Below, piece after piece: positions 20,532 through 28,870 of a stretch of DNA of 64,000 nucleotides. This stretch comes from a virus (Duplodnaviria; Heunggongvirae; Uroviricota; Caudoviricetes): IMG/VR virus record IMGVR_UViG_3300044294_000233, one strand, 5' to 3'. The position numbers and the translations under genes are program-made. The notes below the pieces were generated by a model. That model saw nothing but the letters and a program-made list of their open reading frames with translations, ran no database searches and was not told where the DNA came from. The number at the start of each line of letters is the position of its first letter. Positions within the stretch are counted from its first letter, which is position 1.

Positions 20532-21071
20532 TTACATGCCCAGGTTGACAATTCTTTCGGCCCCAGGCAAATTGTTGCTGCTATAAACGACCTCGAAGCT
20601 GAGATCGATGTCCATCTTAAATGGAGTAAGCTTGTCTTCATCCCACGCCACGTCGGTCGGGAATTTCACACTGTAACTTTTCAGAACCGCGTTCAAAGGC
20701 TGGTTCCCCACACTCAGAAGCTCCCCGCACTTCAACTGACAGATCAGCGGCGGCGCATACGGACCCGGTCCCGTGTTCCTCGGATAGACACAGGACTCCA
20801 GCTTCCTCATCAAGATCAAGTTGTCGTTGATGTCCTGCTTCGACACGACGAACAAGTGCATCGCCCAACTGATCGACCTGTTTTCCGAGTGGCTGAACGC
20901 CTTGATCGGGAACGAACGACCAATGATCGTCGTGTCAGGATAACTGGCGCTCTTGCCGTCGCTCAGTTCGGGCAAGTTGTTCATGAAGATCGGGCCGTAG
21001 CCGGGAATTGTGATGTAACAATTCCTGATAGGTTTCAGTCTGCACGAGCCTTTTTCCGTAGCTCTAGCCAT
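20532..21071 (-). CDS. Tail protein, immediately downstream of the tape-measure gene (gpU / DNA-circulation position).
   Basis: 179-aa ORF whose start overlaps the stop of the tape-measure gene. Confidence 0.35.
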   Translation of the reverse strand: MARATEKGSCRLKPIRNCYITIPGYGPIFMNNLPELSDGKSASYPDTTIIGRSFPIKAFSHSENRSISWAMHLFVVSKQDINDNLILMRKLESCVYPRNTGPGPYAPPLICQLKCGELLSVGNQPLNAVLKSYSVKFPTDVAWDEDKLTPFKMDIDLSFEVVYSSNNLPGAERIVNLGM

Positions 21072-27000: not shown

Positions 27001-28870
27001 TCAACATCTCGAAGCTCTTGCTCGTTTTGAGACGACGCTCCTCTTCCTTCAACGCCAGTTTTTCTTCCAGCGTGAGGTTGCCTTGTTGTTTCTTGCGGAT
27101 GTCATCGAGGCGGTCGGCCAGGGTTTTGCTGGACTCTTTCAACGCCTTCAGCGACTGCTGCAACTCGCCGAGTTCAAGACCGTATGCGGCCTTCAACTGG
27201 AGGTTGAGCTTCATCTTGGCTTCGTCGGACAGGTTGTCGATGGCCTCAACGGATTGGACGCCGAATTTCTTCAGCATCATCTCCATGCCCTTCTCCATGT
27301 CCTTGATGCCGCCCTTCGTCTTGAGGATCGTACCCTTCATCAAGTCGCCCGTGCGACCGACCTGGGCGGCGGCTTGGAACAGGAAGGCGCGAGTCTCGCT
27401 CGACGCTTCGCGGAACAAGTTGTTGGTCGATGCCATCGCCTTGATCAGCGGTTCGATCTGCTTAGTCACACCCATCTTTTGGGCGTTGGCGGCGATCTCC
27501 ATGACGTTCTTGGCTGCGCTCGCACTCAACATGGCGGCGTTGCGGAGAACCTCAACGAAGTTGTCACCCTGTTTGACGGCGTTGGCGAGTTCCTTGCCCG
27601 TCAAGCCTGTGTAGCGTGCGATGTCCCGCATGCCCCGCCCCATTTCGGCGATCTGCATGGTGGACATGTTGTACTGGTTGTTCCACTTGATGAACTCTTC
27701 GGTCAGTTCGCCGGCCTCAAGACCCAACTGCTTCTCGGTGTTCAACTGGGCCGTCGTAACCGCCATCGCGATCTTCTGGTCCTTGATGCCCGACTTCAGA
27801 GCCTTCAGGTAAGACGCCTGGAACTCGGAGCGGCCGACGCCGGTTGTCTTGGCGGTCTTGCCGATGTCCGTCATCGCGTCTTGAAGACCTCGTGTCTCGG
27901 CTGTCAGACCTTGCGTCTCGTTGATCGCGGCCCGCGTCTCTTTGATGAACTTGACTTCTTCGTGTACGGCTTCCTTGAACATGGACTTGAAGGTGCCGAG
28001 GAACGTATCCTTCAAGAAACTCATGTCCTTCGAGAAGACGAAAAACGCCTCTTGAAGATCGGCGACGTGGCCGATGAAACCTTCAAGTGCGTCATCCGTC
28101 GCCATCATGTCTTCGCGGTGCTGACGATAAGCCCTTCGACCCCGCGTGAGCGAGTCGTTCATGCCCTCGTTTGACGTGGTCGCGGCATTCATGGCCGCTT
28201 CAAATGCTCTGGCACGGTCCATCGGACTCGGCCCGCCACCGCCCCCGCCACCACCCCCGCCACCACCGCCACCCGATGGTGCCGCACTCGGAGCCGCCCT
28301 TTCTGTCGGCGAAGGAGCTACGGATGGGGTCTTGTCAACGACCGAAGAACCCGGACAGCATGCTTCGATGGCGGCTTTCAAGCCGCCTAGCAGTCTGTGT
28401 GTTTCTTGGTCGTGTGTGAAGAACTTGCCCGGCGTTGACGCCATATCTTTCATTGCACGAATGTCGGACGCCTGACCAGCAAACGCGGTTTTGAATTCGC
28501 CCTTGACGTAGTCTAAAACGGCCTGAGTGTTCGTTTGAATCACGCCCAAGGAACCGCTTACGTCGCCGCCGAGAGTTGGGGTTCCCGTTCCCTTGCCGAT
28601 GTTGTCGATCTTCTGGCCGAGTTCGTTCATCACCCGCTTCAGGCCCGATATTTCTTCAGCGAAACTCGAACTCATTTCGTTCAAAGCTGCTTCGATTGAC
28701 TTGCACTGGGACGACGTTTTCTGGCTGATGACCGACGCGACTTCCCCGACAACTGACTTCATACCGGCGGTGATCGAACTTTTCAGTTCGTCCCACTGGT
28801 TTGGGTCGATGTTCATGTTTACGTTGCGGCCGATTGCATCGACTACGACGTGAAGTTGCGGATCAGCCAT
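21071..28870 (-). CDS. Tail tape-measure-like protein of 2599 aa with a poly-Gly tract, repeated transmembrane-rich modules and tandem repeats of about 95 aa.
   Basis: Very long ORF with a long N-terminal alpha/coiled region, GGGGGGGGGGGGGG, at least four copies of PGRMFAIAATWLILAVAVGAIGYALTASLPGW...FALVSLPLIAFA modules, and three copies of NFAAILSFISYGIIDPIFGIG...LNPRDIQTAANVMKGLADMLPAIPPVIDALNGPIADLS. It sits upstream of the baseplate genes. Confidence 0.65.
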   Translation of the reverse strand: MADPQLHVVVDAIGRNVNMNIDPNQWDELKSSITAGMKSVVGEVASVISQKTSSQCKSIEAALNEMSSSFAEEISGLKRVMNELGQKIDNIGKGTGTPTLGGDVSGSLGVIQTNTQAVLDYVKGEFKTAFAGQASDIRAMKDMASTPGKFFTHDQETHRLLGGLKAAIEACCPGSSVVDKTPSVAPSPTERAAPSAAPSGGGGGGGGGGGGGGPSPMDRARAFEAAMNAATTSNEGMNDSLTRGRRAYRQHREDMMATDDALEGFIGHVADLQEAFFVFSKDMSFLKDTFLGTFKSMFKEAVHEEVKFIKETRAAINETQGLTAETRGLQDAMTDIGKTAKTTGVGRSEFQASYLKALKSGIKDQKIAMAVTTAQLNTEKQLGLEAGELTEEFIKWNNQYNMSTMQIAEMGRGMRDIARYTGLTGKELANAVKQGDNFVEVLRNAAMLSASAAKNVMEIAANAQKMGVTKQIEPLIKAMASTNNLFREASSETRAFLFQAAAQVGRTGDLMKGTILKTKGGIKDMEKGMEMMLKKFGVQSVEAIDNLSDEAKMKLNLQLKAAYGLELGELQQSLKALKESSKTLADRLDDIRKKQQGNLTLEEKLALKEEERRLKTSKSFEMLTSLDEAAKGAKDMNAALSKFGERRKDFEGDLKAMGKSWGSNAGAARDAINEALKGVNESLKASGKSELSIDSSEIEKALKDPAAFRELSAKLTKAEQEAATAQKAALDPMSKIEQGVRELNDTMRNFTSSFLSSYMNLTGVLGVLAPLLGMMAAQQALSIARWRADKDFGVMGVLKKGLGKIFGYGGKKKGGAGDVAPGAAAGSGVDAGKGVEALAKDGLGGVSHVEDDTVAGLLRQLLHCLCSPKANGIENDEFKNIGKKNKANAAQIEQGAVAKAEKKAGGAAAKEKSKASAGGDDTKSILDKIEKLKGDGPRIAKAAGIIAALTIGIVLLGAVLIKLANMLFSKLKLDIKTVIETAAIIGVIMGAAGLIGTALYYAKPHLDKLADAEKDINAMVKNMWKGAKALAKLSGPLLVFAAELAIFGKIVLGALGLSPGRLLLIAGTWIALALGIAGIAEAIVRSGPMYAQLPVATKMMHTLHKELWAAVGAFGLVTLPLIAFAAIMALFGYVVIDKFGLTPGRMFAIAATWLILAVAVGAIGYALTASLPGWATMGAGLSAVWSIYPMLWSAVAAFALVSLPLIAFAGLLALFGYVVIDKFGLSPGRMFAIAATWLILAVAVGAIGYALAASLPGWVTMGAGLSVIWALMPVLLNAVAAFALVSLPIIAFAALLAGFGYIVIDQLGLTPGRMFQIAATWLILAVAVGAIGYALTASLPGWVTMGVGLGVIWSLLPLLFMAVAAFALVSLPIVAFAAILAAFGTIVIDELGLTPSRMFDIAATWLVLAIGIGAISYALIEATPGWSMLGIAYPFLLYAYGLMWLGVGAFALVSLPILALAEIIAEFGDTLDELGLTPERMKQIGETFVTLSETIGELCMSMLGATAKLAVLGVLSIFSVLMMSLAMLGVGAFAVLAIPILALGSAISNFGRTIIDDMGLTPERMQAIQDSFTSLTDTIRSLSWKMISATASLSLLGVLLIFSTLASTFIWMGALAFLVMMGPFQFLAYMLSKFAESVDIEGVKKAGEICEAIAKTISTIPPVIKSLTDELLPLMEPRWWGLVGPSKMEKALKVTTGFFSKNFAAILSFISYGIIDPIFGIGPGAAGVKLNPRDIQTAANVMKGLADMLPAIPPVIDALNGPIADLSKKSWFGYGSNKLEKTLNKLKDGFHSSFAAILNFISYGIIDPIFGIGAGAFGTKLNPRDVQTAGKIMKGLAEMLPAIPPVIDALNGPIADLSSKGWFSGKNKLQKTLAKLQQGFQQNFTAILSFISHGIIGPIFGAGQAEGEGIMLNPRYIQMAANVMKGLADMLPAIGTMIDTLGSGIQKILKSSKMRMKMDAIETFATWFANVARLLTEGMVIPIKTQFPTVDEVQDMGGRLEGMTQIVAKLPKFMEDLYSKIKEGLALLDQNKIEGNEVTRFTIWFYNVASMLNFGIVMPITTGFPPQKEADDAIAKLDKMTEIVSKLPSIVQSLSEATAGAREMMKSSGIWGAYRDMDMFMWEAGFIIRRGVMEPMQTWPKDSEMTDAVARITKMDEMFKTMAQAMESMAASAKAMASVDLSQSMNMGSLGNPENGNLAEFVSAFAEQNAESMGMNDTNSLVDVMGQQSPQITSMQSALRIVENYTHDIKDLFERSSSVIGDIQKTSEYMSMFGDLDFYENQISEKIAQSKQFVPTVQRIAENIGKGFDFAGGKALLETIAGQKVRMDEMAAGLKETEDYTKKLAEIFTMANNAVNMIKQTTNNLTQLNAIKDVEKEITAKIASGNSFMVSVLKTVEAVATNFGTNEEVKTTLMGVQAKIKAAGDTNQALTDSLKFIETVKQLQSNVLSIGQMAKDKPLGGGVPGAGAPVSIPAAKTGLSTPEPVQTASTTGAANLDVEKTIMRDQATSQPPAGGNKNAVDFSNLQKAIEENKMTNDEILSVLQAMLRLMTPRSGSNTAPGGDTNTYSRPDKPAAYYRAPVGDFNSSAGKGATNMVRTR
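22990..23800 (-). repeat. Three tandem copies of a roughly 285-bp repeat inside the tape-measure gene.
   Basis: Near-identical ggccattcagtgcgtcaatcacaggtggaatagc(a/g)ggtagcat at about 23310 and 23585, with a diverged copy at about 23040. Confidence 0.55.
24180..25700 (-). repeat. About 6 tandem copies of a roughly 255-bp repeat encoding hydrophobic, transmembrane-like modules inside the tape-measure gene.
   Basis: Recurrent motifs such as gcgaacgcgatgatcggcagactcactaaggcgaatgc, gcgaacgcgatgagcggcaagctgactagcgcgaacgc and gcgaacgcgatcagcggcagagtcacgagtccgaacgc appear at about 255-bp spacing. Confidence 0.55.

Follow-up and report, generated by a model that had tools for sequence, protein, structure and literature searches.

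The probable tape measure gene and its modules

The window analyzed here, a stretch of 64,000 nucleotides from an uncultured member of the Caudoviricetes (IMG/VR record IMGVR_UViG_3300044294_000233), has as its longest open reading frame (ORF) a gene for a protein of 2599 amino acids (aa) on the minus strand (21071..28870). Judging from its sequence and its neighboring genes, this protein is very probably a tape measure protein (TMP), encoded by a huge uncultured phage whose tail is contractile. The ORF begins with an ATG codon that carries a GAGGA ribosome-binding site 5 nt on its 5' side, runs without internal stops and ends in TAATG, where its stop codon overlaps the start codon of a downstream 179-aa gene. 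A promoter and terminator scan gave fewer matches than its shuffled controls. The initial annotation of this DNA had described the ORF at this position together with a poly-Gly tract of 14 residues, and both are exact: the tract consists of exactly 14 glycines (aa 200-213) and was also found by Tandem Repeats Finder (TRF) as a 12-bp period repeated three times. The gene can be divided into the following features.

21071..28870, minus strand: predicted tape measure protein gene, 2599 aa (ORF; 66 full-length relatives; at least 448 family clusters; kept position ahead of the baseplate genes)
28301..28870, minus strand: N-terminal region, aa 1-190 (aligns with relatives P0001 and P0002 from residue 1)
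28232..28273, minus strand: 14-Gly tract within a Pro/Ser/Ala-rich linker (relatives have G/S/P/A-rich linkers in the corresponding region)
26531..28003, minus strand: conserved family core, aa ~290-780 (alignment A1 of the relatives; family signature)
24053..26068, minus strand: array A, eight tandem hydrophobic modules of 84 aa (252 bp), aa 935-1606 (TRF score 964; repeat search; alignment)
23801..24052, minus strand: degenerate ninth A-like copy, aa 1607-1690, overlapping the first B module (alignment; 4-12% identity to its neighbors)
23126..23944, minus strand: array B, three tandem amphipathic modules of 91 aa (273 bp), aa 1643-1915, with a partial fourth to aa 2006 (repeat comparison)
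22316..23008, minus strand: array C, three tandem modules of 77 aa, aa 1955-2185 (repeat comparison)
21074..21508, minus strand: conserved C-terminal end, aa 2455-2599 (identity in relatives)

The A modules share a common layout, in which a long helix leads through a G-L-[TS]-P-x-R-M loop into a second helix, and a P-G-W turn then connects to a short helix. The loop is kept in every copy and the turn in the central copies. Three copies (aa 1103-1354) are pairwise 75-80% identical at the amino acid and 75-79% at the nucleotide level, a fourth is 56-63% identical and the outer copies range from 10 to 36%. Pairwise E-values between the core copies lie between 1e-25 and 1e-34, so the repeats are not due to chance. 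Where the initial annotation saw at least four near-identical modules of about 85 aa (255 bp) at 24180-25700, the modules are real, but their period is 84 aa, the array is larger, comprising eight copies and the degenerate ninth, and the near-identity was overstated. Likewise, its three modules of about 95 aa (285 bp) at 22990-23800 correspond to the three copies of array B, although the period is shorter, the array lies at 23126-23944 and a partial fourth copy follows. Array C had not been noticed.

We also considered, and rejected, two relations between the modules. The first hhalign match suggesting a common ancestry of A, B and C was an artefact of overlapping rows, and once the overlap was removed the probability fell to about 1%. 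The periods of 77, 84 and 91 aa are multiples of the heptad, yet the family-wide spacing is mostly 81-84 aa for every module type rather than a multiple of seven.

The initial annotation had pointed to many transmembrane-like helices. Indeed, the protein contains 23 non-overlapping 19-residue windows with a mean Kyte-Doolittle (KD) hydropathy of at least 1.6, nearly all of them at aa 937-1632. In blocks of 100 residues, this region has a mean hydropathy of +1.0 to +1.7 and only 3-12% charged residues. About 70% of the protein is hydrophilic and helical or of low complexity. An AlphaFold2 (AF2) model of four A modules, built on a module alignment of 20 rows, is about 95% helical with breaks at the conserved loops, albeit at low confidence. 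Only the secondary structure of this model is usable.

The tail operon and its conservation

The genes downstream of the TMP gene lie on the same strand and are tightly packed. The operon consists of the TMP gene and the following genes, where L001 is a 586,525-bp NCBI contig.

28881..29375, minus strand: opening gene of the operon, 164 aa, 10 nt upstream of the TMP gene (80% identical in L001)
20532..21071, minus strand: conserved 179-aa gene, translationally coupled to the TMP gene (69% identical in L001; no family match)
20199..20525, minus strand: 108-aa baseplate protein (phrog_7145 'baseplate wedge subunit', 6.3e-15)
18756..20189, minus strand: conserved 477-aa protein in the slot of the Mu gp44 / P2 gpD hub (by position only; no family match)
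16642..18756, minus strand: central spike with gpV / VgrG-type OB domain, 704 aa (PF04717, 5.6e-9)
16196..16627, minus strand: gp25 / gpW-type baseplate wedge protein, sheath initiator (PF04965, 8.4e-19; phrog_261, 9.9e-20)
14637..16199, minus strand: gp6 / gpJ-type baseplate wedge protein, 520 aa (phrog_219, 4.5e-28)
11478..14633, minus strand: P2 gpI-type baseplate / tail protein, 1051 aa (PF09684, 1.5e-4; phrog_48)

The window thus carries a baseplate set of the contractile Mu/P2/T4 type, in which homologues of gp25/W, gp6/J, gpI and the gpV spike are all present. Their order is that of the annotated Mu record, namely tape measure, hub proteins, spike and three wedge proteins. For the 179-aa and 477-aa proteins, family searches in Pfam, PHROGs and NCBIfam gave no match.

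The same arrangement recurs at related loci. A gene of ~165-190 aa is followed by the giant ORF and then by genes of 177, ~108, 425-498, 720-756 (gpV), ~140-154 (gp25), ~519 and ~1050 aa (gpI). This order is kept on L001, on a 669,797-bp JGI contig and on a distant contig on which the giant protein is only 29% identical. The gene of ~165-190 aa stands directly ahead of the TMP gene on all contigs examined, with homology shown for L001 and the 670-kb contig. The sole relative in the phage-genome collection searched, LR756511.1 (595,163 bp), likewise belongs to an uncultured phage and has a similar order of comparably sized ORFs, on which three matches could be placed (the TMP core, the spike and a homologue of a 491-aa protein of the window). 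Between the window and L001 the neighboring proteins are 60-81% identical and the giant protein about 40%, making the latter the fastest-evolving gene of the tail module. Such rapid evolution within the tail module is typical of TMPs.

Upstream of the TMP gene, three minus-strand ORFs of 280 aa (28885-29727), 125 aa (29708-30085) and 798 aa (30407-32803) were considered as chaperone, tube or sheath genes and rejected as spurious, because gene calls on related contigs and protein matches place the real genes there on the plus strand, among them the gene of the vault-shoulder protein described below. The 280-aa ORF, which overlaps the 164-aa gene, is conserved in neither L001 nor L019. The operon therefore starts at the 164-aa gene. 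Its product has 36 relatives, and one identical copy is found on contigs of up to 254 kb. The AF2 model reaches a predicted local distance difference test (pLDDT) score of 72.5, with 80-93 over residues 21-125, and its best structural matches in BFVD are 'DNA end protector' proteins of the T4 gp2 type (E 1e-4 to 4e-2; template modeling scores 0.4-0.5). Together with a weak match to phrog_429 (E 0.0078), the model tentatively suggests a T4 gp2-like fold rather than a recognizable tail assembly chaperone.

A large family of probable tape measure proteins

A first search returned 66 relatives of 1,600-4,400 aa. They share mainly aa ~290-780, mostly at 36-53% identity (27-29% in the three most distant), and the remainder aligns at ~20-25%. 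A profile of this core, derived from alignment A1, was scored exhaustively against 1.84 billion representative proteins with a cut-off of E<=1e-3; an earlier word-indexed search with the core profile had yielded only 5 fragments and is superseded. The exhaustive scoring gave 448 clusters, 391 of them at E<=1e-30. At the level of sequence, this is a sharply bounded and unnamed family of at least 448 clusters, with lengths from ~1,000 to 5,363 aa (median 2260) and with the core placed mostly ~150-350 residues from the N-terminus in full-length members. The core is present on sixteen viral contigs of IMG/VR, and the family occurs on viral contigs of up to 670 kb.

The connection to known TMPs runs through the shorter members. 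When four sub-regions of the 2599-aa protein were searched separately, only the N-terminus gave sub-threshold matches, and these were to tape measure PHROGs: the best for aa 1-190, weak and non-significant, are phrog_1272 (E 0.015) and phrog_4200 (E 0.028). Three family members give significant matches. P0148 matches phrog_167 (1.9e-6) over residues 214-875, its core included; P0126 matches phrog_58 (3.1e-8); and P0176 matches phrog_23574 (9e-12) and phrog_794 (2e-11). Together they reach six PHROG TMP families at 4.3e-5 to 9e-12 or better, in addition to phrog_1272 at 1.2e-3. Among PDB sequences, neither the protein nor the core profile matched anything beyond low-complexity or generic helical segments. 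Lambda H, Mu gp42 and P2 gpT showed no sequence link to the family core or the A module, nor did phage G gp183 to the protein or its core.

The protein has the features expected of a TMP, being very long, predominantly alpha-helical, built of three families of tandem repeats, endowed with hydrophobic segments and encoded directly upstream of the baseplate genes. The tape measure assignment of the initial annotation is borne out by the conserved gene order and by transitive homology through the shorter members to the PHROG TMP families. The identity is well supported because the slot in the tail operon is conserved, the shorter relatives match TMP families and the tail module offers no other candidate. 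It is a protein of a known kind in an unusually hydrophobic version, and the amplified hydrophobic array is its distinctive feature.

The TMPs of huge phages are usually left unannotated, and a recent survey of large aquatic phages was unable to find theirs (PMC12619734). The core of ~490 aa provides a usable annotation signature for at least 448 protein clusters.

Module number, protein length and tail length

Among the 185 family members of 1,000 aa or more, hidden Markov models of the modules detected A, B or C in 88, and the types invariably follow one another as A, B, C. The window protein reads AAAAAAAABBBCCC, a 3764-aa relative AAAAAAAAABBBBBBCCCC and a 3669-aa relative AAAAABBBBBBBBBBBBBBCCC. 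Across the family, length correlates with module count (Spearman rho 0.68) and with the number of hydrophobic windows (rho 0.80). The sequences thus support the view that module copy number sets protein length, as relatives differ in module number and length follows. To that extent the suggestion of the initial annotation that repeat copy number could tune length agrees with the family, in which module numbers vary within a fixed A-B-C order. As an alpha-helix, a module of 81-84 aa would span ~122-126 Å, close to three tube-ring rises of 40-42 Å, an agreement that may be fortuitous or may reflect a structural constraint.

For phage G, the only cultured megaphage, a TMP of 2893 aa accompanies a tail of 450 nm (PMC8570332). 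This calibration of 1.56 Å per residue gives ~404 nm for 2599 aa and the classical 1.5 Å gives 390 nm, so that by analogy a tail of about 390-405 nm is plausible here. The initial annotation called the protein exceptionally long. Long it is, but it lies near the family median and is shorter than the TMP of phage G. Nor does genome size dictate TMP length, since the 595-kb LR756511.1 encodes a member of only 1640 aa. Siphoviruses with tails of over 800 nm exist, as in the Thermus phages P23-45 and P74-26 (PMC9022992). If the ruler rule holds, tail lengths from ~150 to 800 nm could be read from sequence for uncultured huge phages. The longest member, P0112 (5363 aa), would at 1.5 Å per residue correspond to a tail of ~800 nm, in a type of module that looks contractile.

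Reliability of the assembly

The initial annotation regarded the long repeats as an assembly hazard, which for the modules is largely not the case. The longest exact repeat within the ORF is 75 bp, between two module copies, and the next is 48 bp. Eleven of the 16 related viral contigs run through the whole TMP gene, repeat arrays included. The two nearest relatives of similar size, P0002 (2707 aa) and P0003 (2767 aa), were assembled independently; both align collinearly with the window protein over its full length and contain 14 modules, the same total. Given these short exact repeats, the collinear relatives and the contigs that traverse the gene, the module arrays have probably been neither collapsed nor inflated.

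The assembly is weaker at another place. Three contigs that come from the same phage (L019, L020 and L021; 98.7-100% identical) end at window positions 28516, 28313 and 28321, which is 40-240 nt before the poly-Gly tract, and four of the 16 related contigs (L005, L012, L014 and L018) begin within the N-terminal portion of the TMP gene or within the core. Where short-read contigs of this phage and its relatives break off, it tends to be within the low-complexity Gly/Pro/Ser/Ala linker near the N-terminus of the TMP and not within the 252-bp repeats. Because contig ends cluster near this linker, the number of Gly codons is the least certain detail of the gene, and assembly curation should look to the linker rather than to the modules. 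Exact-pattern searches of metagenome and viral contig collections gave no other assembly of the window phage, and an exact-product look-up of the TMP found no identical full-length copy elsewhere.

Proposed function and alternative explanations

Work on the TMPs of lambda, T4, T5 and HK97 has established the steps on which the following model draws. A few TMP copies, anchored with their C-terminus in the baseplate hub, would run as helices along the lumen of the tube during its growth, and tube polymerization would stop at the N-terminal end of the TMP, at a length of ~1.5 Å per residue. The conserved C-terminal ~145 residues (identity 43-52% in P0001 and P0003, and 26-32% in P0006, P0031, P0042 and P0043) may well be the end attached to the hub, by analogy with TMPs in general. 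After sheath contraction the TMP would be expelled ahead of the DNA, and the hydrophobic array would insert into the cytoplasmic membrane, where it would make or prime a DNA conduit. Tandem duplication of the 84-aa module would have amplified this hydrophobic part from ~2 segments, as in LR756511.1, to ~23, and the same duplications would lengthen the ruler and enlarge its membrane-active portion. Tandem amplification of the ruler's membrane-insertion segment is the simplest history. The initial annotation had offered a membrane channel as an alternative to a tape measure. Membrane insertion is the accepted second role of the hydrophobic segments of TMPs, so the two do not compete.

Several observations weigh against a tape measure. 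The 2599-aa protein itself, searched whole and as four sub-regions, has no significant match in Pfam, PHROGs or NCBIfam, nor among PDB sequences, and sequence similarity could be detected with none of the proteins lambda H, Mu gp42, P2 gpT and phage G gp183. No frameshifted tail assembly chaperone pair precedes the gene, and the sole operon gene upstream, that of 164 aa, looks gp2-like. A chaperone pair with a programmed frameshift is common ahead of TMPs without being universal, and T4 does without it. Pfam, PHROG and PDB sequence searches identified neither sheath nor tube genes in the window. The stretch of 700 almost uncharged residues is unlike anything in the four reference TMPs (23 hydrophobic windows against 0-4), and it may not lie extended in the tube lumen; the AF2 model of four A modules (pLDDT 46, predicted template modeling score 0.30) is unusable at the tertiary level.

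The TMP might also be only partly a ruler: array A would fold back into hairpins or a compact bundle and serve mainly as an oversized membrane-insertion or translocon domain, on a tail clearly below 390 nm, at roughly 300 nm. We regard this as a possible though doubtful reading. The helix-breaking loops G-L-T-P-x-R-M and P-G-W are conserved in the modules, the hydrophobic windows outnumber those of the reference TMPs, and the family member of the 595-kb phage manages with two of them. The hydrophobicity of array A is most strongly periodic at 4.0 residues, with a further signal at 3.5, and the former is the spacing of small-xxx-small motifs in the packing of membrane helices; both periods are, however, harmonics of the 84-aa repeat, so this point carries little weight. 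Against this reading, family length tracks the number of hydrophobic segments (rho 0.80), which is what would be expected if these modules add length. Moreover, the outer copies of array A are of the same size, ~81-91 aa, as the amphipathic modules of B and C, which argues for one structural role along the whole array.

Two further explanations dispense with the ruler or with its length, and we consider both very improbable. According to one, the gene encodes a large polytopic membrane or pore-forming protein, a fused membrane protein, within the tail module. The many transmembrane-like segments and the missing direct match to a TMP family would suit it, yet a membrane-protein family is not matched either: Pfam at E<=1 returned two irrelevant sub-threshold matches. 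About 70% of the protein is hydrophilic, helical or of low complexity, it occupies exactly the TMP slot of a conserved Mu-like order, its family members match PHROG TMP families, and no other TMP candidate exists in the tail module. According to the other, length and copy number are artefacts of assembly, either because the repeats were expanded or because unrelated pieces were joined at the repeats or the poly-Gly tract. The other assemblies of the same phage do break just before that tract, no exact full-length copy of the protein is on record elsewhere, and a 75-bp exact repeat connects two module copies. Adjacent copies nevertheless differ at 21-25% of their bases with all other exact repeats at 48 bp or less, the frame stays open through 7.8 kb, and the end-to-end collinearity of P0002 and P0003 with their 14 modules, together with the 11 of 16 contigs that traverse the gene, leaves only the number of Gly codons uncertain.

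Within the tape measure interpretation, a more specific scenario is that a lineage of huge phages turned a short membrane-insertion segment of its TMP into a tandem array of three-helix hydrophobic modules of 84 aa, present here in 8-9 copies and reaching 36 hydrophobic windows in relatives. We put this forward as a rather unlikely speculation. If it did hold, the trimer or hexamer, once ejected, would form a translocon of unusual size that inserts itself and delivers genomes of several hundred kilobases, and the family would specify the longest contractile tails known, about 0.4 µm here and up to ~0.8 µm for the 5363-aa member. The amplified array also poses the question of whether the membrane segments of TMPs scale with tail length, envelope or genome size.

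Comparison with known systems

The number of hydrophobic windows (KD of at least 1.6) sets the window protein apart from the reference TMPs.

Lambda gpH: 0
Mu gp42: 0
Phage G gp183: 0
P2 gpT: 4 (one ~85-aa block)
LR756511.1 family member: 2
Window protein: 23
Family: range 0-36, median 12

Phage G gp183 is a close parallel in kind, as the giant TMP, of comparable length, of a megaphage with a contractile tail and a Mu-like tail gene order (PMC8570332; JN638751). It differs in having no detectable sequence similarity and no hydrophobic window, in following a frameshifted chaperone pair and in a reported tail lysin domain (PMC12484599), neither of which is seen in the window. Mu gp42 and P2 gpT occupy the same slot, upstream of the genes for the hub, the spike (gpV) and the wedge proteins (gp25/W, J and I). 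In P2 gpT, the single glycine/alanine-rich hydrophobic block of ~85 aa is about the size of one A module. Both proteins are much shorter (690 and 815 aa versus 2599), have no detectable sequence similarity, possess one such block or none in contrast to the array of eight here, and are preceded by chaperone genes with a programmed frameshift.

The TMP of LR756511.1 shares the family core (E 9e-51) and is flanked by the spike and by the homologue of the 491-aa protein of the window. It has only 1640 aa and two hydrophobic windows, none of the A, B or C modules could be detected in it, and it seems to represent the form before expansion. The Thermus phages P23-45 and P74-26 demonstrate that very long rulers and tails of over 800 nm exist (PMC9022992), whereas their tails are non-contractile and their lineage is unrelated.

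Other genes in the window

Divergent from the TMP operon, a gene for a 679-aa protein (30437-32476, plus strand) encodes a major vault protein shoulder domain (PF11978, 6.7e-21) and a weak Vault_3 repeat. The gene of this vault/SPFH-like protein is conserved: L001 has it at the corresponding position (75% identity; 881 aa in that contig), and so does L019. Further along, a conserved block on the strand of the TMP gene encodes proteins of 491 aa (34615-36090), 98 aa (34361-34657), 163 aa (33870-34361) and 163 aa (36083-36574). L001 has counterparts of the 491-aa protein and of one 163-aa protein at ~81% identity, and LR756511.1 has one of the 491-aa protein at 57%. Judged by the size and order of its genes, this block could hold the sheath and tube genes. 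Neither the 491-aa protein nor the 163-aa protein at 33870-34361 matched PHROGs or PDB sequences, Pfam, searched with the 491-aa protein alone, gave no match, and neither protein resembled the tested sheath and tube proteins of G, Mu and P2.

Just downstream of the baseplate genes lies a gene for a LAGLIDADG homing endonuclease with C-terminal helix-turn-helix domains (PF03161, 4.7e-21; 9955-10974, minus strand). Also downstream of the baseplate genes, two adjacent genes (1412-3676 and 3673-4683, minus strand) encode PKD-domain proteins (PF18911, up to 1.6e-22), which are probably components of tail fibers or adhesins. Four further genes encode a tRNA nucleotidyltransferase (37097-38647, plus strand; PF01743), an ADP-ribosylglycohydrolase (62527-63657, minus strand; phrog_6572, 2.9e-64), a ParB-like nuclease domain protein (6744-7202, minus strand) and an AAA ATPase (49247-50434, plus strand). 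The tRNA nucleotidyltransferase and the ADP-ribosylglycohydrolase are typical accessory genes of huge phages. The rest of the window, with these two genes, the homing endonuclease, the PKD-domain proteins and its numerous orphan genes, is in keeping with a huge phage and not with a bacterium.

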